Positions 2,381-30,192 of a stretch of DNA of 64,000 nucleotides are shown here, piece after piece (the stretch's first letter is position 1; every line of letters begins with the position of its first letter). The stretch lies in the NCBI RefSeq assembly GCF_001677475.2, contig NZ_CP015229.1. One strand, written 5' to 3'. Below the pieces are notes generated by a model. It did not search any database, was not told the origin of the DNA, and saw only the letters and a program-made list of their open reading frames with translations. Position numbers and translations under genes: made by a program. This stretch comes from Escherichia coli (GTDB taxonomy: Bacteria > Pseudomonadota > Gammaproteobacteria > Enterobacterales > Enterobacteriaceae).

Positions 2381-2412
2381 TATGAGCTTTAACGAAAGTG
2401 AATGAGGGCAGC

Positions 2413-3918
2413 ATGGAAACCAAAGATCTGATTGTGATAGGTGGCGGCATCAATGGTGCTGGTATCGCGGCAGACGCCGCTGGACGCGGTTTATCCGTGC
2501 TGATGCTGGAGGCGCAGGATCTCGCTTGTGCGACCTCTTCCGCCAGTTCAAAACTCATTCACGGTGGCCTGCGCTACCTTGAGCACTATGAATTCCGCCT
2601 GGTCAGCGAGGCGCTGGCTGAACGTGAAGTGCTACTGAAAATGGCCCCGCATATCGCCTTCCCGATGCGTTTTCGCCTGCCGCATCGTCCGCATCTGCGC
2701 CCGGCGTGGATGATTCGGATTGGTCTGTTTATGTACGATCATCTGGGTAAACGCACCAGCCTGCCGGGATCAACCGGTTTGCGTTTTGGCGCAAATTCAG
2801 TGTTAAAACCGGAAATTAAGCGCGGATTCGAATATTCCGACTGTTGGGTAGACGACGCCCGTCTGGTACTCGCCAACGCCCAGATGGTGGTGCGTAAAGG
2901 CGGTGAAGTGCTTACCCGGACTCGTGCCACTTCTGCTCGCCGCGAAAACGGCCTGTGGATTGTGGAAGCGGAAGATATCGATACCGGCAAAAAATTCACC
3001 TGGCAGGCGCGCGGCCTGGTTAATGCTACCGGCCCGTGGGTGAAACAGTTCTTCGACGACGGGATGCATCTGCCTTCGCCTTATGGCATTCGCCTGATCA
3101 AAGGCAGCCATATTGTGGTGCCGCGTGTGCATACCCAGAAGCAAGCCTACATTCTGCAAAACGAAGATAAACGTATTGTGTTCGTGATCCCGTGGATGGA
3201 CGAGTTTTCCATCATCGGCACCACCGATGTGGAATACAAAGGCGATCCAAAAGCAGTGAAGATTGAAGAGAGTGAAATCAATTACCTGCTGAAAGTGTAT
3301 AACGCGCACTTTAAAAAACAGTTAAGCCGGGACGATATCGTCTGGACCTACTCCGGCGTGCGCCCGCTGTGTGATGATGAGTCCGATTCGCCGCAGGCTA
3401 TCACTCGTGATTACACCCTTGATATCCATGATGAAAACGGCAAAGCCCCGCTGCTGTCGGTATTCGGCGGTAAGCTGACCACCTACCGCAAACTGGCGGA
3501 ACACGCGCTGGAAAAACTGACGCCATATTATCAGGGCATTGGTCCGGCGTGGACGAAAGAGAGCGTGCTGCCGGGCGGTGCCATTGAAGGCGACCGTGAC
3601 GATTACGCCGCGCGTCTGCGCCGCCGTTACCCATTCCTGACCGAATCGCTGGCACGTCATTACGCACGCACTTACGGCAGCAACAGCGAGCTGTTGCTCG
3701 GCAATGCAGGGGCGATAAGCGACCTCGGGGAGGATTTCGGTCATGAGTTCTACGAAGCGGAGCTGAAATACCTGGTGGATCACGAATGGGTCCGCCGCGC
3801 CGACGATGCCCTGTGGCGTCGCACAAAACAAGGAATGTGGCTGAATGCGGAACAACAATCTCATGTGAGTCAGTGGCTGGTGGAGTATACGCAGCAGAAG
3901 TTGTCGCTGGCGTCGTAA
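2413..3918 (+). CDS. glpD: Aerobic glycerol-3-phosphate dehydrogenase GlpD (FAD-dependent)
   Basis: Track ORF 506 aa; conserved start METKDLIVIGGGINGAG (FAD-binding GxGxxG); 501 aa. Confidence 0.95.
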   Translation: METKDLIVIGGGINGAGIAADAAGRGLSVLMLEAQDLACATSSASSKLIHGGLRYLEHYEFRLVSEALAEREVLLKMAPHIAFPMRFRLPHRPHLRPAWMIRIGLFMYDHLGKRTSLPGSTGLRFGANSVLKPEIKRGFEYSDCWVDDARLVLANAQMVVRKGGEVLTRTRATSARRENGLWIVEAEDIDTGKKFTWQARGLVNATGPWVKQFFDDGMHLPSPYGIRLIKGSHIVVPRVHTQKQAYILQNEDKRIVFVIPWMDEFSIIGTTDVEYKGDPKAVKIEESEINYLLKVYNAHFKKQLSRDDIVWTYSGVRPLCDDESDSPQAITRDYTLDIHDENGKAPLLSVFGGKLTTYRKLAEHALEKLTPYYQGIGPAWTKESVLPGGAIEGDRDDYAARLRRRYPFLTESLARHYARTYGSNSELLLGNAGAISDLGEDFGHEFYEAELKYLVDHEWVRRADDALWRRTKQGMWLNAEQQSHVSQWLVEYTQQKLSLAS

Positions 3919-3926
3919 GGATGATG

Positions 3927-3958
3927 CCCGGTTGAAGTGCAACCGGGCTATTTGGATT
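3927..3958 (+). terminator. Rho-independent terminator of glpD
   Basis: Perfect 8-bp stem cccggttg/caaccggg with 5-nt loop, followed by T-rich ctatttggatt, just after the glpD stop. Confidence 0.5.
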
Positions 3959-3969
3959 CCTTAGACTAT

Positions 3970-4575
3970 TTATTGTAAATAATTGAATAACGGCCCCTGA
4001 GCTAAAATCGCCAAACTTAAGCACGTTACCCACTCACCCCATTTCTGCCTCTGGCTTCTATTTTTGCTACACCAATGGCAATAATATCCCAATGCAAAAC
4101 CAACCTGTGCACTAATCGGGCCGACAAAATCAGTCCACGACTGCGGCCAAAAAGGGGAAAAATTCAGGGGAAGCCAGACAAACGTCAGAAAGAAATTTCG
4201 GATATTTTCCAGCAACGCTGATTTCTCTGGAGAAATATAAAGAATGAAATTCGAGAGAATTAACCAGAAATAGACCGGAGAAAAGACCAGCCAGCAATGC
4301 AGTCTGTTTTTTAATTCAGGAGGCGTTCTGCGGGAGAATTGCCAACCGATGCCCCACATTACACTGAAAAAAAATGCATATTCAACCATTAACTCAAGTT
4401 GTAATTCCTGAAGAGAAATACGCACAACCAGGAGCGGAAAGGAGAATGTTATTTCTGCCAGAAAAGTTAACGTGAATATAAGTACGGCTAAGACAATAAC
4501 CGTCGGCCATACCAATACTGGCACGATAACAAAACCGAGAATTACAGGGGGAATATAAAGCCGGAATTTAATCAT
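3970..4575 (-). CDS. Hypothetical small multi-pass membrane protein (island ORF-D), last gene of a four-gene operon
   Basis: 201-aa ORF, several long hydrophobic segments, AT-rich codon usage unlike flanking genes; start 2 nt after the stop of the upstream ORF (translational coupling). Confidence 0.6.
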   Translation of the reverse strand: MIKFRLYIPPVILGFVIVPVLVWPTVIVLAVLIFTLTFLAEITFSFPLLVVRISLQELQLELMVEYAFFFSVMWGIGWQFSRRTPPELKNRLHCWLVFSPVYFWLILSNFILYISPEKSALLENIRNFFLTFVWLPLNFSPFWPQSWTDFVGPISAQVGFALGYYCHWCSKNRSQRQKWGEWVTCLSLAILAQGPLFNYLQ

Positions 4576-4577
4576 TT

Positions 4578-5372
4578 TTATTTTCCTGGTGATTCGGATG
4601 ATGCGTCATACATCGCGCATAAACACTCATCAATCATCCAGTCGTCTACCCAGACCTGATGCTGTGTACCCTGTTCTGGCTGCTTTGGTGGGTTCTCAAT
4701 CGCCTGCCGCGCGCGTTCTTTCAGGATGGATTGATTGTTGAAGGCCCAGGCATTGATTTGGGCGGTAATGGCATTATCGATATCGTCATGGTTATCTCTG
4801 ATATAACCTTCACGATACTGGTTCAATAAACAGGCAAGTGAAGCTGCCGACCAAAAGCCGGGAATTGAATTAACGGCATCAAGCAACGGCGCAATGGCGA
4901 TATCGGCACGGAAAAACATTTCCAGCATATACTGTAATTCGACAGCTTCATCGCCGGATACCCAATCAGCCATATACTGGCAGGCAAATCGCTGCAATAT
5001 TGCCCGTTCATCCGCACGCCAGTTTTCTTTGTTGGCAAGGTTGATACGGCGCAGAGAAAAAACTTCGTGAATATTGTCAAAATACCCCTGTGCAACAAAT
5101 TCCAGTAAACGCGGAAGAAAATAGCGGACCTCATCGCTATTTTGCGGATCGGGTCCTGGGCTACTATTCCAGGCATTGATTAAGGAATACGAGATCGCTC
5201 GTAACGATGTACTCCGTAATACCTTTTGTTCCTGCTGACTCAGGCAATATTCACAACAAACCACAAATTTCTGCGGCACCGGATAGCGACGAAAAATATG
5301 ATAAATCTGCTCAATTAATGCCTGCATGGCGGGGCTGGGTTGCATAATTACCCCCTCGCCCGCTGGTCGCAT
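4578..5372 (-). CDS. Hypothetical protein, no recognisable family (island ORF-C); probably cytoplasmic
   Basis: 264-aa ORF with no TM segments; alternative start at internal Met (about 5345) lies 2 nt downstream of the ORF-B stop; tightly coupled to flanking ORFs. Confidence 0.6.
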   Translation of the reverse strand: MRPAGEGVIMQPSPAMQALIEQIYHIFRRYPVPQKFVVCCEYCLSQQEQKVLRSTSLRAISYSLINAWNSSPGPDPQNSDEVRYFLPRLLEFVAQGYFDNIHEVFSLRRINLANKENWRADERAILQRFACQYMADWVSGDEAVELQYMLEMFFRADIAIAPLLDAVNSIPGFWSAASLACLLNQYREGYIRDNHDDIDNAITAQINAWAFNNQSILKERARQAIENPPKQPEQGTQHQVWVDDWMIDECLCAMYDASSESPGK

Positions 5373-6055
5373 GTAAATGGTTGATAAACCAAACGAGCAT
5401 TCGCCGCATTCAGGCGAATAATGGCACTACGAGAGAGGGAAAAGCTGGGGCGAATGCAATAATTACAGTCCCGACAGCTATCCTCTGTGCAATTTTCCAC
5501 TGAGTAATGACGCGCGTAGAGTTTCAGTTCAGCCTGCTTATCGCGAAATCCGCGTAAACTGTTATCGCTATGAAATTTCCAGGCTTCTTTAAACACCTGA
5601 AAGATATAGACATCCTCAATCCAGGAGTCACATTTTTTAAGCGGGCGCTTTGCTATGATCACCCGCTCCGGGTTTAGCATCGCCGTAAAATGAACGGTGA
5701 AGTCATTTGTCGTATTCAGGTCACATTGAACATCTGGTACATCACTGATATAGGGGTCAAATCCAAAATCAGCACCACAGGCACAAAGACGACCGATCGT
5801 GGTGGTATCGAGGGAAAATCCCGGCCATACATTGCTGGACGTTAAGCCAATATTTAATGTGACATTATATCGAAGCAATCCCTCAAGACCGTCAGCACCG
5901 ACGAACTTTTCCCCTTCATCCAGGACCTGATTAATGAGTTGTTGAACAATACCTTCATCCCAGTATGCCGATTTGCAGTTGGCAATCGTAATATCCACGC
6001 CTGTGAAAGGATCAGTACCAGCGAGGCTTGCAAATAATGTATTAACTAATTCCAT
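5348..6055 (-). CDS. Hypothetical cysteine-cluster protein (island ORF-B), candidate metal or Fe-S binding
   Basis: 235-aa ORF with C-terminal C-x4-C-x2-C-x2-C cluster (NCTEDSCRDCNYC) and further Cys residues; not the CxxxCxxC radical-SAM spacing. Confidence 0.6.
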   Translation of the reverse strand: MELVNTLFASLAGTDPFTGVDITIANCKSAYWDEGIVQQLINQVLDEGEKFVGADGLEGLLRYNVTLNIGLTSSNVWPGFSLDTTTIGRLCACGADFGFDPYISDVPDVQCDLNTTNDFTVHFTAMLNPERVIIAKRPLKKCDSWIEDVYIFQVFKEAWKFHSDNSLRGFRDKQAELKLYARHYSVENCTEDSCRDCNYCIRPSFSLSRSAIIRLNAANARLVYQPFTCDQRARG

Positions 6056-6069
6056 TTTTATTACCCGCC

Positions 6070-7587
6070 TTAATGCAACGTTTTATACATCGGCACATAA
6101 CCCACGTCTTCTACCAAACTCTGCCCCTGCGGCGTTAAAAACCATTCAACCAGTTTTTGTGTTTCTGACGTCATATTTTCCCGCGTTACCATAAAGGCAT
6201 CGACGATATAGGGATATTTGCCATTGCGAATGTTTTCCGCAGTCGGTGCAATACCGTTAATCGCTAACAATTTGATATTCTTATCGGCATTCATTTGTGT
6301 TGCGTAATAGCGGAAGGTATAACCTATTGCGTTGTTTGTATTACGGTATTCGGCAACGACTTTAATCATTCCCTCCATCACACTTGCCACTTCGGTTTCC
6401 TGCGGCGAGATCATACGGACATTTTTCATGACCTGTAATTGCATCACCGTCTGACTGCCAGAGTCTTCCGGGCGTTGCCAGGTCTGGATCTCCTGATCGT
6501 TACCGCCAACAGTACGCCAGTTGGTAATTGCGCCACTAAAAATGTCTCGCACTTGTTGTTCAGTCAGGGAATTGACTGGATTATCAGCATTGACGATAAA
6601 AACAAATGCTTCACGGGCAAAGGGGGTGTACAGCAAAGTGACACCAGATTCCTTTGCACGTTTTTTCTGCCCACCGGAAGGTTGCGCCACGAAAATAATA
6701 TCAGCATCACCCTTAACGATTTTGTTATATGCTTCTGGCGTACGAGAGTTATCCAGATAATCCCAAACGTGAAAATCCTCTGGTATTATGCTTAACGCAT
6801 AAAAGGCAGAAGCATAAATTGGGTACGCCGCCGTGGCACCATCGATTCGCGGCCAGTTTTGCGTAAACTGAATTTGCGGTTTGCCACGCAGCGGCGTCAG
6901 TCGATTATTGAGTTTATCGGGTCGCCAGGCCCAGATATCAATATTTTCGCGTACACCAACACCAGGGTTTTGCTGCTTATATAAATGGGCCTGATACCCA
7001 GCGACAATACCAAGTAAGAGAAGTAGAAACAGGAGTAAGTTACGGCAACGTAGCCCGGACGTGCCGGTTAAAGGATGCCTTGTCGGCCAGCCGTATCCCA
7101 GCGAAAAACTGATATGCGTTCCAACGGGAATAATGACTATCCACCAGTACTCACCACCGACTAATGAGACTAACAAAACACCCAGCCAGGGAAGCATAAG
7201 ATCTGCCAACCAACCTGAAACCATCTGGCGAAATTGATAATCTGCCAGATGTAGCGTGATTATCCAGCCAACCAGGATTAATAAAGCAGGAACTAAAAAA
7301 AGACATTGTCGCCAGGCGGCTATTTCTCTGTTTTCTGGTGCGCTATCGCCCGCCCACACTCGCCCAGAGAAAAATAGCAGTAATGCGCCCAGCGTCAGCA
7401 TAAAGACGTTAAGTAGAAGATAAATTGTTGGCGTAAAGAGTAAATTGCAAAACTCAAGAATAGCGGCAAGCCCGGCCCCCAGCATGGCAATAACCGCCGC
7501 CAAAAACTGCGCCAGAATGGGGATGCCGAAAAAAGTCATTACCAGCGAGGTCAAAATCCATTTTCTGTTTTGCATTATTCTTTCCAT
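6070..7587 (-). CDS. Polytopic membrane protein fused to a PstS-like (type-2 periplasmic binding protein) phosphate/oxyanion-binding domain (island ORF-A)
   Basis: 505-aa ORF; N-terminal ~200 aa with about 6 hydrophobic helices; C-terminal ~280 aa with PstS-like motifs (AAYPIYASAF, DADIIFVAQPSGG, RPEDSGSQ, NAIGYTFRYYA); possible alternative start 4 codons downstream. Confidence 0.65.
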   Translation of the reverse strand: MERIMQNRKWILTSLVMTFFGIPILAQFLAAVIAMLGAGLAAILEFCNLLFTPTIYLLLNVFMLTLGALLLFFSGRVWAGDSAPENREIAAWRQCLFLVPALLILVGWIITLHLADYQFRQMVSGWLADLMLPWLGVLLVSLVGGEYWWIVIIPVGTHISFSLGYGWPTRHPLTGTSGLRCRNLLLFLLLLLGIVAGYQAHLYKQQNPGVGVRENIDIWAWRPDKLNNRLTPLRGKPQIQFTQNWPRIDGATAAYPIYASAFYALSIIPEDFHVWDYLDNSRTPEAYNKIVKGDADIIFVAQPSGGQKKRAKESGVTLLYTPFAREAFVFIVNADNPVNSLTEQQVRDIFSGAITNWRTVGGNDQEIQTWQRPEDSGSQTVMQLQVMKNVRMISPQETEVASVMEGMIKVVAEYRNTNNAIGYTFRYYATQMNADKNIKLLAINGIAPTAENIRNGKYPYIVDAFMVTRENMTSETQKLVEWFLTPQGQSLVEDVGYVPMYKTLH

Positions 7588-7599
7588 TCTTTCTGAATG

Positions 7600-7645
7600 G
7601 CGAAATTATACTCCCCGAGTCCCCTTGCCCCTTCTGGACACTTTT
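7600..7645 (-). promoter_or_regulatory. Candidate promoter of the island operon
   Basis: Minus-strand TATAAT (plus 'attata' about 7605-7610) roughly 20-35 nt upstream of the ORF-A start, directly downstream of the glgP terminator. Confidence 0.3.
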
Positions 7646-7659
7646 CCGAAATGATGGCG

Positions 7660-7685
7660 AAAAAAACGGGACCCTTTGGCCCCGC
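7660..7685 (-). terminator. Rho-independent terminator of glgP
   Basis: Minus-strand hairpin cggggcc-aaag-ggtcccg followed by a run of 7 U, about 20 nt after the glgP stop. Confidence 0.45.
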
Positions 7686-7702
7686 TCTATTTATTAGTGA
7701 AA

Positions 7703-10168
<2,466 letters not shown>

Positions 10169-27534: not shown

Positions 27535-28278
27535 CTATTGGGCCGTAAAGTTCGGACCAATCACGTCAATCGCATCGGTACAGATGCAATCCACGCCCCA
27601 GCGCAGCAACTCTGTCGCGCGCTGGGGTTTATTGACGGTATAAACCAGAATCCGTAATCCGGCGTCTTTCAACTGCATCACTCGCGCTTTATCGAGTAAC
27701 TTATGATTGAGATGAATAGAGACGCAGCCCAGCCGCGCGGTCAGTTCTCGCCAGTCGTCGCGCCACTCATCAAGCAATAAACCGCGCGGCAGTTCTGGTA
27801 CTGCTTGTTGCGCGGCTTCTAAAGCATCAATCTCAAACGATGACAGCAGCGGCGGCGTCATATCGGCCCACAGTTCGCGTGCCGCCAGCGCCACCATTTT
27901 GCCCGTTAATGGTCCAGTGCCAGTGGTGGGTTTGATTTCGATATTCGCCATCATCCCGTGTTCACGACAGCGTTCCGCCACCTGCGAAAGCAACGGTAGC
28001 GGCTCACCTTTAAACATTTTGCTGTACCAACTGCCCGCATCCACGCGCAGTAAATCCTGCCAGTTCAGTTCACCCGCGACGCCCCAGCCGTTGCTGGTAC
28101 GTTCGAGATTGTCGTCATGAAGCAGGAAGATCTCGCCATCTTTCGATAACTTCGCGTCAAATTCGATCATCTTATGACCGTATTTTGCCCCGACGTCGAT
28201 TGCCGCCAGGGTGTTTTCGGGGGCCAGCTTACCGCCGCCACGATGAGCGACGATGCGGGGATAAGGCCAGTTACTCAT
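27535..28278 (-). CDS. ugpQ: Cytoplasmic glycerophosphodiester phosphodiesterase UgpQ
   Basis: 247-aa ORF; GDPD-family catalytic His (IVAHRGGG). Confidence 0.95.
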
Positions 28279-29345
28279 ACTCGTTGTCCTGTTTCACCAT
28301 CAAAAAGATGCAGCTGATTTTCCGCCAAATGCAGCCACAGCGTGCTGCCTGCCGTCGGGCGCTCCTGATGCGCCAGTCGCACCACCAGCTTCTGCTCGCC
28401 CCAGCGTCCGTGCGCCAGGTTATCTGCGCCGAGGATCTCCAGCGTATCCATCACCAGCGGTACGCCACCTTCTGCTTGCGAGCTTAGCGCAATATGTTCC
28501 GGGCGAATGCCGAGGGTCATTTTACGCCCGGCATACTGACGGTAGCCACCGTTTAGCGGCAGCTCAATACCGCCGTCCAGTTCGAAATGCGTGCCTTCGT
28601 TATTCACGCGGCCTGTCAGCAGGTTCATCGCCGGGCTGCCGATAAAACTCGCCACAAACAGGCTGGCGGGCTTTTCATACACTTCAACCGGAGTGCCAAT
28701 CTGTTCGGCAACGCCGCCGTTCATCACCATCACCCGCTGAGCGAGCGTCATCGCCTCAACCTGATCGTGAGTAACGTAGAGTGAAGTCGTTTTCAGGCGA
28801 CGGTGCAATTGCTGCAACTCAAGGCGCATCTGCACGCGCAGCTTGGCATCAAGGTTCGAGAGCGGCTCATCAAACAAAAATACCGCCGGATCGCGCACAA
28901 TCGCGCGCCCCATTGCCACGCGCTGGCGCTGCCCGCCGGAAAGCTCACGCGGGCGACGTTTGAGCAGACCGTCCAGCTCCAGAATGCGCGCCGCTTCTTT
29001 AACGCGCTCGGCTATTTGCTGCTTGCCCATGCCGCGAATTTTCAGCCCCCACGCCATGTTTTCTTCGACGCTCATATGCGGATAAAGCGCGTAGTTCTGG
29101 AACACCATCGCAATCCCGCGATCTTTCGGCTCCATTTCGGTCACACGCTCATTGTTGATCCAGATATCGCCTTCCGTTACCCGCTCCAGCCCGGCAACCA
29201 TGCGCAGCAGCGTGGATTTCCCGCAGCCAGACGGCCCGACCATCACGATAAATTCGCCATCCGCCACATCAAGGGTCAGCGGTTTAATCACCTGGGTTTT
29301 GCCATCCCAGCTTTTGGTTACTGCCTGTAATTTCAGTCCTGCCAT
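28275..29345 (-). CDS. ugpC: sn-glycerol-3-phosphate ABC transporter ATP-binding protein UgpC
   Basis: Track ORF 369 aa; conserved start [13 protein letters not shown] gives 356 aa; Walker [10 protein letters not shown] and signature LSGGQRQR. Confidence 0.95.
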
Positions 29346-29346
29346 C

Positions 29347-30192
29347 TTATTTCTCACTATCGACCAGGCCGCGCACGAAGGCACGCTGCATCACTAAAAC
29401 AATCACTACTGGTGGGATCAGGGTTAACAACATCGCCGCCATCACCGAGTTCCATTCCGTGGTGCCTTCGCCAGTGGCGATCATCCCTTTAATCCCTGCC
29501 ACGGTGGTGCCGAGATCAACGTCGGTAATAATCAACAACGGCCACAAATACTGGTTCCAGCCGTAAATAAAGGTGATCACAAACAGCGCCGCCAGATTAG
29601 TTTTGGAGAGCGGAAAAACGATGTCGCAAAAGAAGCGCATTGGTGACGCACCGTCGATCCGCGCCGCTTCCACCAGCTCATCCGGCAGCGTCATAAAGAA
29701 CTGGCGGAAAAGAAACGTGGCGGTCGCCGAGGCCATCAGCGGCAGCGTTAAACCGGCGTAGCTGTCGAGCATCTTCAGATTGGCGATGACTTCCACCGTC
29801 GGGAAAATACGCACTTCAACCGGCAGCATCAGGGTGATAAAAATCATCCAGAAGAATAGGTTACGTAGCGGAAAACGAAACCAGACAATGGCAAATGCCG
29901 AGAGCATCGAGACGGTAATTTTGCCGAGCGTAATGCTGAACGCCATCACAAAGCTGTTAAGCAACATCCGCCAGAACGGCGCGCTATTCGTGCCTACCCC
30001 GTTCACCCAGATGTTGTGGATGTTTTCCAGCAGATGCGTGCCGGGGATGAGCGTCATCGGCGCGGCGTAGACGGCCTGTTTATCCAGCGTCGCCGCGACA
30101 AACGCCACGTACAGCGGGAAGAGGATCACCGCGATCCCGAGGATCAGCATGGTATGGCTGAATATCGTCAGCCACGGACGGTTCTCAATCAT
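29347..30192 (-). CDS. ugpE: sn-glycerol-3-phosphate ABC transporter permease UgpE
   Basis: 281-aa polytopic ORF; operon position. Confidence 0.95.

Follow-up and report, generated by a model that had tools for sequence, protein, structure and literature searches.

The window analysed here is a stretch of 64,000 nucleotides (nt) of Escherichia coli DNA (assembly GCF_001677475.2, contig NZ_CP015229.1). It carries glpR-glpG-glpE and glpD (2398-3918, plus strand), and then, on the minus strand, glgP (7703-10150), glgA, glgC, glgX and glgB. Between glpD and glgP lies a 3.7-kb insert of four tightly packed minus-strand open reading frames (ORFs), whose GC content is 45-46% as against 52-55% in the flanks, i.e., about 7% lower. 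Our subject is the insert gene nearest glgP, which has glgP on one side and the other three ORFs and glpD on the other, and which encodes a membrane module joined to a domain resembling PstS, the binding protein of the PstSCAB importer (Table 1). Its start codon is M1 (7587) or M5 (7575), given that E. coli homologues have 501-502 amino acids (aa); Escherichia proteins of 501-509 aa are 87-93% identical to it. A first-pass annotation of this DNA had described the gene as an unusual fusion of about six transmembrane helices to a PstS-like domain, and had pointed out that no ATP-binding cassette (ABC) ATPase or permease genes accompany it.

Table 1. Coordinates of the gene under study, its parts and other features, in the window unless a related locus is named
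Feature	Position	Strand	Remarks
Gene under study	6070-7587	-	Complete ORF, 505 aa plus stop; coordinates shared with the first-pass annotation (ORF list)
N-terminal membrane module	6970-7587	-	Residues 1-206; six predicted helices, family-specific fold
Linker / N-terminal strap	6853-6969	-	Residues 207-245, from helix 6 to the binding domain
PstS-like type-II periplasmic binding domain	6073-6852	-	Residues 246-505; Pfam, TIGR02136 and PDB matches
N-lobe loop G250-A-T-A253	6829-6840	-	PstS has GAGATF here, TIGR02136-type proteins GSTT
Ala301 codon	6685-6687	-	Opposite PstS Asp56 in both local and global hhalign alignments
C-lobe anion-binding motif R372-P-E-D-S-G-S-Q379	6451-6474	-	Aligns with PstS R135...S139-G140-T141
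235-aa ORF	5348-6055	-	Insert gene; weak N-terminal match to YbbD (NF007301)
264-aa ORF	4578-5372	-	Insert gene; overlaps the 235-aa ORF; CxxC motif
201-aa ORF	3970-4575	-	Far end of the insert; stand-alone paralogue of the membrane module
TATAAT hexamer	7605-7610	-	18 nt 5' of the ATG of the gene under study, 3' of the glgP stop and hairpin; read from the sequence
Hairpin with T-run	about 7661-7686		3' of the glgP stop codon
Stem-loop	3926-3948		Between the 201-aa ORF and glpD
Stand-alone module genes	L012 8536-9138; L014 12480-13019; L059 1351-2070		Related loci
Paenibacillus kinase-linked loci	L030, L034, L044, L048, L051, L078, about 4500-7100		Intact in five, truncated to 116 aa in L048

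Both profile searches and structure comparison give the C-terminal domain a PstS-type fold, as the first-pass annotation had proposed. The Pfam family PBP_like_2 (PF12849) covers residues 247-485 (E 8e-30), and the only PHROG match of the protein is a generic phage PstS family. The TIGR02136 score of 121.2 bits is under the NCBIfam curated cutoff of 206.6 bits. The best sequence matches in the PDB are phosphate-binding proteins, namely 4q8r (E 4e-19) and then 4gd5, 4n13 and 1twy. We built a full-length AlphaFold2 model on 72 homologues, with a predicted local distance difference test (pLDDT) value of 88.7 and a predicted template-modelling (pTM) score of 0.78. When this model was searched with Foldseek, PstS structures came out on top (4gd5, 4q8r and 9l8j), at target-normalised template-modelling scores of 0.76-0.81. 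With the Pfam match on one side and six modelled helices on the other, a polytopic membrane domain and a PstS-like domain are indeed joined in one polypeptide.

The binding domain belongs to a recognizable subfamily, which we call YzgL-type. We searched a set of species-representative genomes for two patterns, [WFY]QRPx[DNG]SGSQ and P[FIV][AS][RK]EAFVF, and more than 578 confirmed loci carry them. These loci come from Enterobacterales, Betaproteobacteria, Pasteurella, many Bacillales, Clostridia, Actinomycetota, Treponema, Planctomycetes and others, and the family motifs GATA.YP.Y, PFAREAFVF and QRPxDSGSQ are all present in the E. coli protein. On these grounds, the domain is a distinct and ancient PstS-like subfamily. 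In nearly all of the 76 loci with an intact gene that we inspected, helices (three to six) precede the binding domain. The Bacillales members have about 380-400 aa and three helices, and most others have about 480-520 aa and roughly five or six helices; in a minority of enterobacterial paralogues (about 320-340 aa), a lipoprotein signal sequence, e.g., LLAGC, replaces the helices. As judged by these loci, fusion to a membrane module is therefore the norm for the subfamily, not a one-off. It follows that the word "unusual" in the first-pass annotation is apt insofar as the protein differs from canonical PstS, but not for the subfamily, in which the arrangement is standard; the gene is already annotated as a PstS family member by the Prokaryotic Genome Annotation Pipeline (PGAP).

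The membrane module is a previously undescribed, family-specific domain. AlphaFold2 predicts the same helices in the full-length model and in a model of the module alone (pLDDT 92.1, pTM 0.88): residues 2-46, 53-81, 87-114, 126-144, 149-169 and 177-206. A cleavable N-terminal signal peptide was considered and rejected, since there are six conserved, confidently predicted helices over some 200 residues. No Pfam or NCBIfam family matches the module, and neither the PDB nor AFDB contains a structural relative outside the family; in the Foldseek search of AFDB50, only members of the same family were found, everything else having E >0.1 and template-modelling scores of about 0.2. The module can be aligned through all 72 full-length homologues. 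When its profile was compared with 1.84 billion representative proteins, there were 179 matches, and the binding domain is present in 59 of the 60 matching proteins that have at least 440 aa. In the region of the linker between the two modules, pLDDT has its minimum (residues 201-220), and a MAFFT alignment shows in the linker a motif, (I/V)D..(Y/W).P, that is partly conserved from Bacillales to Escherichia.

Among the 72 homologues, P23 and Q199 of the module are invariant, and G75, R93, W108, P133 and F161 are nearly so. We found no conserved buried charged residues and no catalytic-looking set in this alignment, and therefore the module does not look like an enzyme or a typical pathway for ions or solutes. 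By tblastn matches and by alignment, the three helices of the Bacillales proteins are the counterparts of helices 4-6 in the E. coli protein. We also compared residues 1-120 (helices 1-3) with residues 112-212 (helices 4-6), and detected a weak internal repeat, in which helix 2, loop 2 and helix 3 match helix 5, loop 5 and helix 6 (hhalign probability 49%, P 1.8e-4). Both halves have a G..W motif followed by a loop rich in lysine and arginine (K/R). The repeat is a hint that a unit of three helices may have been duplicated.

The module also exists as a gene of its own. In the window, the 201-aa ORF at the far end of the insert matches the module profile with an hhalign probability of 93% (E 2.6e-7, 149 columns), and it is 64% identical to a protein, P0223, that the module profile had itself found (E 1.1e-7, library-wide). 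The ORF encodes a polytopic protein, a remote homologue of the module, and 2 nt separate the ATG of this ORF from the stop codon of the 264-aa ORF. Elsewhere, Escherichia sp. E1V33 has a stand-alone module gene whose start overlaps the stop of the lipoprotein paralogue before it; another such gene ends a cassette array in Superficieibacter, and in an Opitutaceae genome a third comes after a gene for the binding domain. Metagenomes also contain complete copies of the module gene that have no binding-domain neighbour. Because the module pairs with the subfamily across phyla and exists as a separate gene, the comparison argues for a function of the helices beyond that of a tether.

We mapped the ligand pocket with hhalign profile alignments, local and global, to E. 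coli PstS. T283 corresponds to S38 of PstS, R372 to R135, and S376-G377-S378 to S139-G140-T141; the equivalence of T252 to Thr10 differs between the two alignments. Thus, from the PstS contact set (T10, F11, S38, D56, R135, S139, G140 and T141), the equivalents of S38, R135, S139, G140 and T141 are conserved, whereas D56 is replaced by Ala301. The anion-binding residues, whose conservation the first-pass annotation had proposed to check, are accordingly kept for the most part, with the loss of this aspartate as the departure. Across phyla, twelve positions are invariant in 73 of 73 sequences: D296, F299, S304, Q371, R372, P373, S376, G377, S378, Q379, G422 and F425. A further set is conserved in 69-72 of the 73, i.e., G250 (71), A251 (70), T252 (69), A253 (72), T283, P303 and E326, and position 301 is Ala in 62 family members. 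This degree of conservation implies one shared small ligand, which would carry a tetrahedral oxyanion or phosphoryl group. In PstS, Asp56 recognises protonated phosphate and excludes sulfate. The presence of Ala at this position suggests altered ligand selectivity.

We infer that the binding domain lies outside the cytoplasmic membrane, in the periplasm. The basis for this orientation is found in relatives: the enterobacterial paralogues of the subfamily that are lipoproteins; the three-helix proteins of Bacillales, whose sole K/R-rich segment is the loop before the last helix; and a relative with an enzyme-like N-terminus of about 400 residues, one transmembrane helix and then the binding domain. 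In the family, the mean K/R counts are 2.0 for the N-tail, 3.4 for loop 2 and 4.4 for loop 5, and 0.7 for loop 1, 0.8 for loop 3 and 0.1 for the turn between helices 4 and 5. Proteins with six helices in other phyla have this pattern (+,0,+,0,0,++) too, and no set of six ordinary crossings can accommodate it. The lowest hydrophobicity is that of helices 4 and 5, for which a crude Hessa-type sum gives about +4 to +6 kcal/mol. The count of about six helices in the first-pass annotation agrees with the model, but the actual crossings of the membrane may number five or six, and the N-terminus may be on either side.

We turn to what surrounds the gene. In the window, one has to go more than 20 kb, to 28278-29390, to reach the nearest ORF that has a Walker A as well as an LSGGQ motif, and no ABC gene is adjacent in the loci of Escherichia, Klebsiella, Salmonella, Rahnella or Budviciaceae. 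No ABC component adjoins the gene recurrently in the 76 related loci, and it is never beside pst genes there. The absence of accompanying transporter genes is thus upheld well beyond this window, and the protein is probably not a standard subunit of an ABC importer. Clustering of 825 neighbour ORFs from the 76 loci yielded no conserved operon partner of any kind.

Adjacency to kinase genes is confined to Paenibacillus, apart from Rahnella, where the homologue stands by itself with purB on one side and phoPQ on the other. In six Paenibacillus loci, the start of the homologue overlaps the stop of an upstream KinB-like histidine kinase gene by 1-4 nt. The kinase has about 430 aa, is polytopic and has no extracellular domain; the three-helix homologue comes next, with htpG downstream. 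Judging from this arrangement, the pair may be an operon of a kinase and its co-sensor. Upstream of 11 Bacillales homologues, we found no riboswitch or other leader from which the ligand might be read. A separate observation is that guanidine-I riboswitches (91-94 bits) lie directly downstream of the homologue in two Lysinibacillus loci (L037, 7178-7274; L052, 6959-7057). They precede ORFs of 75-122 aa, which are maybe guanidinium exporters, and are a recurrent neighbour in the genus that is unrelated to the gene studied here.

The distribution of the gene links it to a known remnant. YzgL of E. coli K-12 (b3427), a 93-aa product or pseudogene remnant, occupies the same chromosomal slot beside glgP. 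Genomes of the K-12 type match only the 5' 235-348 nt of our gene, in a stretch annotated as yzgL; K-12 yzgL retains just the first helices of the membrane module, whereas the gene in the window is complete. Judged by position and alignment, our gene is the intact, full-length orthologue of yzgL. Some match to it is present in 4721 of 5426 complete E. coli genomes, and at least 80% of the gene in 3347, which include strains of O157:H7, O145, O111 and O25b:H4. In thousands of E. coli genomes, PGAP labels the product [quoted passage not shown]. Full-length orthologues of about 50-55% identity occupy the slot between glgP and glpD in Klebsiella oxytoca, Salmonella, Pseudocitrobacter, Superficieibacter and Phytobacter, so that synteny extends to Escherichia and five other enterobacterial genera. 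In one Budviciaceae genome, the homologue is inside a mobile-looking region. The literature that we searched contains no paper on the function of yzgL or on this fused architecture; yzgL is mentioned with a -2.0-fold change in a CpxR data set (PMC2731931). The YzgL-type family is thus annotated but uncharacterised.

We next consider selection on the gene. Pairwise against two other Escherichia lineages, the ratio of nonsynonymous to synonymous substitution rates (dN/dS) is 0.13-0.16 overall, with a higher range for the membrane module (0.22-0.27) than for the binding domain (0.07-0.08); the value for glgP is 0.01-0.04. These values indicate a gene that is functional and under purifying selection, yet less constrained than its housekeeping neighbour glgP. 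There is no gene-level signal of positive selection in the pairwise values (0.13-0.27), and variable sites are evenly spread, not clustered in loops. We also compared two regions of the window, 3900-7700 and 7703-9220, with complete E. coli genomes. Nucleotide identity is mostly 80-92% for the gene and 95-99% for the adjoining glgP segment, which means that deeply diverged alleles exist at the locus. Together with the low GC content, the divergence points to deep allelic divergence or recombination at the glpD-glgP slot; the glpD-glgP region has been described as a recombination hotspot, "hotspot A" (PMC13185298). As a further observation, a frameshift in Escherichia albertii NBRC 107761 (L010, 5983-7849) breaks the orthologue in two, with the membrane module in one ORF and the binding domain in the other. 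Decay has thus happened here independently of K-12 yzgL.

Our preferred reading, which we offer tentatively and with somewhat less than even confidence, is that we have here an orphan receptor for oxyanions, tethered to the membrane and acting via its membrane module, and not a subunit of an ABC importer. It would be an inner-membrane protein of two modules, with the C-terminal PstS-type domain facing the periplasm and closing on a small tetrahedral oxyanion or phosphoryl-bearing ligand. This ligand would be phosphate-like, and it would probably be bound unlike phosphate in PstS, because the Asp56 position is Ala. The N-terminal helical bundle, with six helices here and a three-helix core in Bacillales, would have co-evolved with the binding-domain subfamily. 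Ligand capture at the membrane surface would then be relayed via the module to a partner inside the membrane, which could be a sensor kinase without a periplasmic sensor domain, and no substrate would be delivered to an adjacent ABC importer. Both the ligand class and the coupling to a partner are things that we infer. A broader form of this proposal, which we regard as unlikely at present, is that YzgL-type proteins would be a phylum-spanning class of two-module receptors, in which an extracytoplasmic phosphoryl or oxyanion signal (free phosphate or a membrane-bound head group) is relayed by helix-helix contacts to sensorless kinases. A relay to kinases without an external sensor is hinted at by the kinase-coupled operon of Paenibacillus.

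Several known systems are instructive for comparison. PstS itself, as in the TIGR02136-type structures 4gd5, 4q8r and 1twy, has the same fold, the same Pfam family, the C-lobe R...SG(S/T) and a hydroxyl at the S38 position. However, our protein is only about 20-24% identical to PstS, scores below the family cutoff and has lost Asp56; moreover, it is fused to a six-helix module, whereas PstS is soluble or lipid-anchored, and it is encoded outside the pst operon and without a Pho box. In OpuA and GlnPQ of Gram-positives, substrate-binding domains are fused to ABC permeases, so that a binding domain is likewise linked covalently to a polytopic membrane domain. In contrast, the membrane domain studied here has no similarity to ABC transmembrane domains, and no ATPase gene adjoins it. 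The prokaryotic glutamate-receptor channel GluR0 and the ionotropic glutamate receptors combine a type-II binding fold with a membrane domain and are ligand-gated. In GluR0, a K+-channel pore is inserted within the binding domain; the membrane module of our protein, by contrast, is wholly N-terminal and does not have a channel-like fold. Kinases, chemoreceptors and GGDEF/EAL sensors that have domains of the binding-protein type differ from it in possessing a cytoplasmic output domain. Finally, binding proteins can serve as co-sensors of membrane kinases or chemoreceptors, e.g., LuxP-LuxQ, TorT-TorS, PstS-CtpL and KapB with KinB (PMC8050422). The translational coupling of the Paenibacillus homologue to a KinB-like kinase without an external sensor domain resembles such pairs. 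However, proteins of the LuxP type are soluble or lipid-anchored, the enterobacterial gene has no linked partner, and the coupling is one that we propose.

A number of observations weigh against the receptor that we prefer. Given six helices and an outside C-terminal domain, the N-terminus must be outside as well; however, the K/R content of the N-tail and of loop 2 is high, as in segments on the cytoplasmic side, and the six-helix topology model is therefore internally inconsistent. The protein has no cytoplasmic output domain, as it ends with the binding domain and the loops of the module have at most about 18 residues. In the module, conservation of polar or charged residues is limited to Q199 and to R93, which is nearly invariant and lies where helix 3 starts, and thus no specific signalling or transport mechanism is indicated. 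The ligand-gated sensor or transporter that the first-pass annotation had suggested would accordingly have neither an output domain nor a transporter-like fold, and none of our results points to gating, signalling or transport. We saw no partner encoded nearby in Enterobacteria, and the kinase linkage, being confined to one genus, amounts to a single evolutionary observation. No Pho box is present anywhere in the window with up to 3 mismatches allowed, so there is no sign of phosphate regulation. Lastly, the gene is dispensable, since K-12 has a truncated copy and about 38% of complete E. coli genomes have only part of it or none.

The alternative that survives best, although we still consider it doubtful, is that the protein is a membrane-tethered binding protein for a distant ABC importer, most simply PstCAB. 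The polytopic region would then be an elaborate anchor, and the protein a second PstS-like receptor of altered selectivity. It is after all of the PstS family by sequence and fold, with most phosphate contacts kept; the lipoprotein paralogues of the subfamily resemble ordinary anchored substrate-binding proteins, and orphan genes for such proteins that use distant transporters are known. However, a lipobox or a single helix would suffice as an anchor, and yet a module of three to six helices has been kept across phyla and also occurs separately. Its position, never beside pst genes in the 76 loci, its score below the curated PstS cutoff, the loss of Asp56 and the lack of a Pho box are likewise at odds with a spare PstS.

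We find it improbable that the protein is a self-contained transporter of the binding-protein-dependent secondary type, or a ligand-gated channel, in which the helical bundle, possibly as an oligomer, would form the pathway and the fused domain would deliver or gate the ligand. The covalent union of binding and membrane domains without an ATPase would suit such a role, and some small transporters are built from three-helix units, to which the three- and six-helix versions and the weak internal repeat can be likened. Helices 4 and 5, marginally hydrophobic and each with a conserved Pro/Gly motif, would also be compatible with a pathway. Nevertheless, there is no structural similarity to any transporter or channel, the membrane core is without conserved charged or polar residues, and a three-helix core would be very small.

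We also give little credence to a role as a conflict-related envelope protein, e.g., one that protects against a phage or an interbacterial toxin or is an orphan immunity factor, in which the PstS fold would have been recruited for non-nutrient binding. This idea draws on the setting of the enterobacterial gene, which heads a variable low-GC cassette slot with tandem paralogue arrays and with neighbours that include YbbD-family, YbbD_head and DUF1266 genes. It draws also on the Salmonella paralogues, which lie in a region of Rhs orphans with fragments of toxin tips and of Ntox34 and with a YibA-like HEAT protein, and on the contrast in nucleotide identity with glgP and the varying presence of the gene between strains. 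However, no intact toxin gene is paired with it and none adjoins it in the window, and what comes after the Rhs tip of the Salmonella paralogue in Citrobacter is another gene, of 92 aa. PADLOC has no match for any of the four insert genes. A conserved physiological ligand fits better than a conflict role, given a dN/dS far below 1, a pocket without variation from Firmicutes to Proteobacteria and Bacillales homologues in housekeeping contexts. Least of all do we believe that this is a dispensable, decaying accessory gene without current function in this genome, a view to which the yzgL truncation, the patchy presence and the frameshifted E. albertii copy lend something, since the ORF is intact here, dN/dS is 0.07-0.27 and the gene is syntenic across at least six enterobacterial genera.

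The other contents of the slot deserve description in their own right. The enterobacterial gene heads a cassette slot whose content varies. In the window, neither the 235-aa nor the 264-aa ORF has a signal peptide or a Pfam, PADLOC or PHROG family. This pair, consisting of a YbbD-family gene and a 264-aa gene, comes after the orthologue in the window, in Pseudocitrobacter (L013), in Superficieibacter (L014, twice) and in E. coli TA054 (L092), and in view of this recurrence it behaves as a mobile two-gene cassette. In Klebsiella and Salmonella, the slot has 234-aa and YbbD_head genes instead. Extra paralogues of the binding domain are present in the slot in E. coli TA054 and Escherichia sp. E1V33. 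The TA054 array (L092/L093, 3988-10064) consists of a 516-aa membrane-anchored copy followed by paralogues of 248/307 aa and 326 aa, and it is flanked by two secreted proteins of 141-142 aa made of repeated "GN.KG..TD..G.TTYRD" units.

Outside this slot, an array of Rhs orphans in Salmonella enterica (L090, about 2440-9910) contains two lipoprotein paralogues of the binding domain. At nt 2442 and 3562 of the locus are two degenerate C-terminal tips of Rhs proteins with the motif PxxxxDPxGL; the array also has a fragment of Ntox34 and a YibA-like protein of HEAT repeats, which matches NF007244 with 389 bits. We considered whether the paralogue could be the immunity partner of the upstream Rhs tip. 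This was not supported, as the same tip in Citrobacter is followed by the 92-aa gene and not by a binding-domain gene. Two further points concern expression signals and starts in the window. The TATAAT hexamer, which the consensus scan did not call, is a possible promoter belonging to the gene itself. The mechanically determined ORF of glpD (2398-3918, plus strand) begins at a GTG, so that six additional residues, MNEGSM, precede the conserved METKD start, and this longest-ORF start is probably not the real one.

These results bear on how the family is annotated and understood. The functional implication of the label "phosphate ABC transporter substrate-binding protein", carried by the gene in thousands of genomes, is probably wrong, because the protein has its own membrane module, its own pocket signature without the selectivity aspartate, and no transporter partner. 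The analysis also explains the origin of the K-12 remnant yzgL. The genes that encode the module alone, and the mismatch of its charge pattern with the number of helices, pose minor structural puzzles of their own. If the protein merely anchors a spare PstS, the result would be an ordinary one. If, however, it is a tethered oxyanion receptor, the E. coli pathotypes that keep the gene (O157:H7 and ST131) would provide a simple, testable model, and bacteria would have an added route by which to read phosphate-type signals at the membrane.

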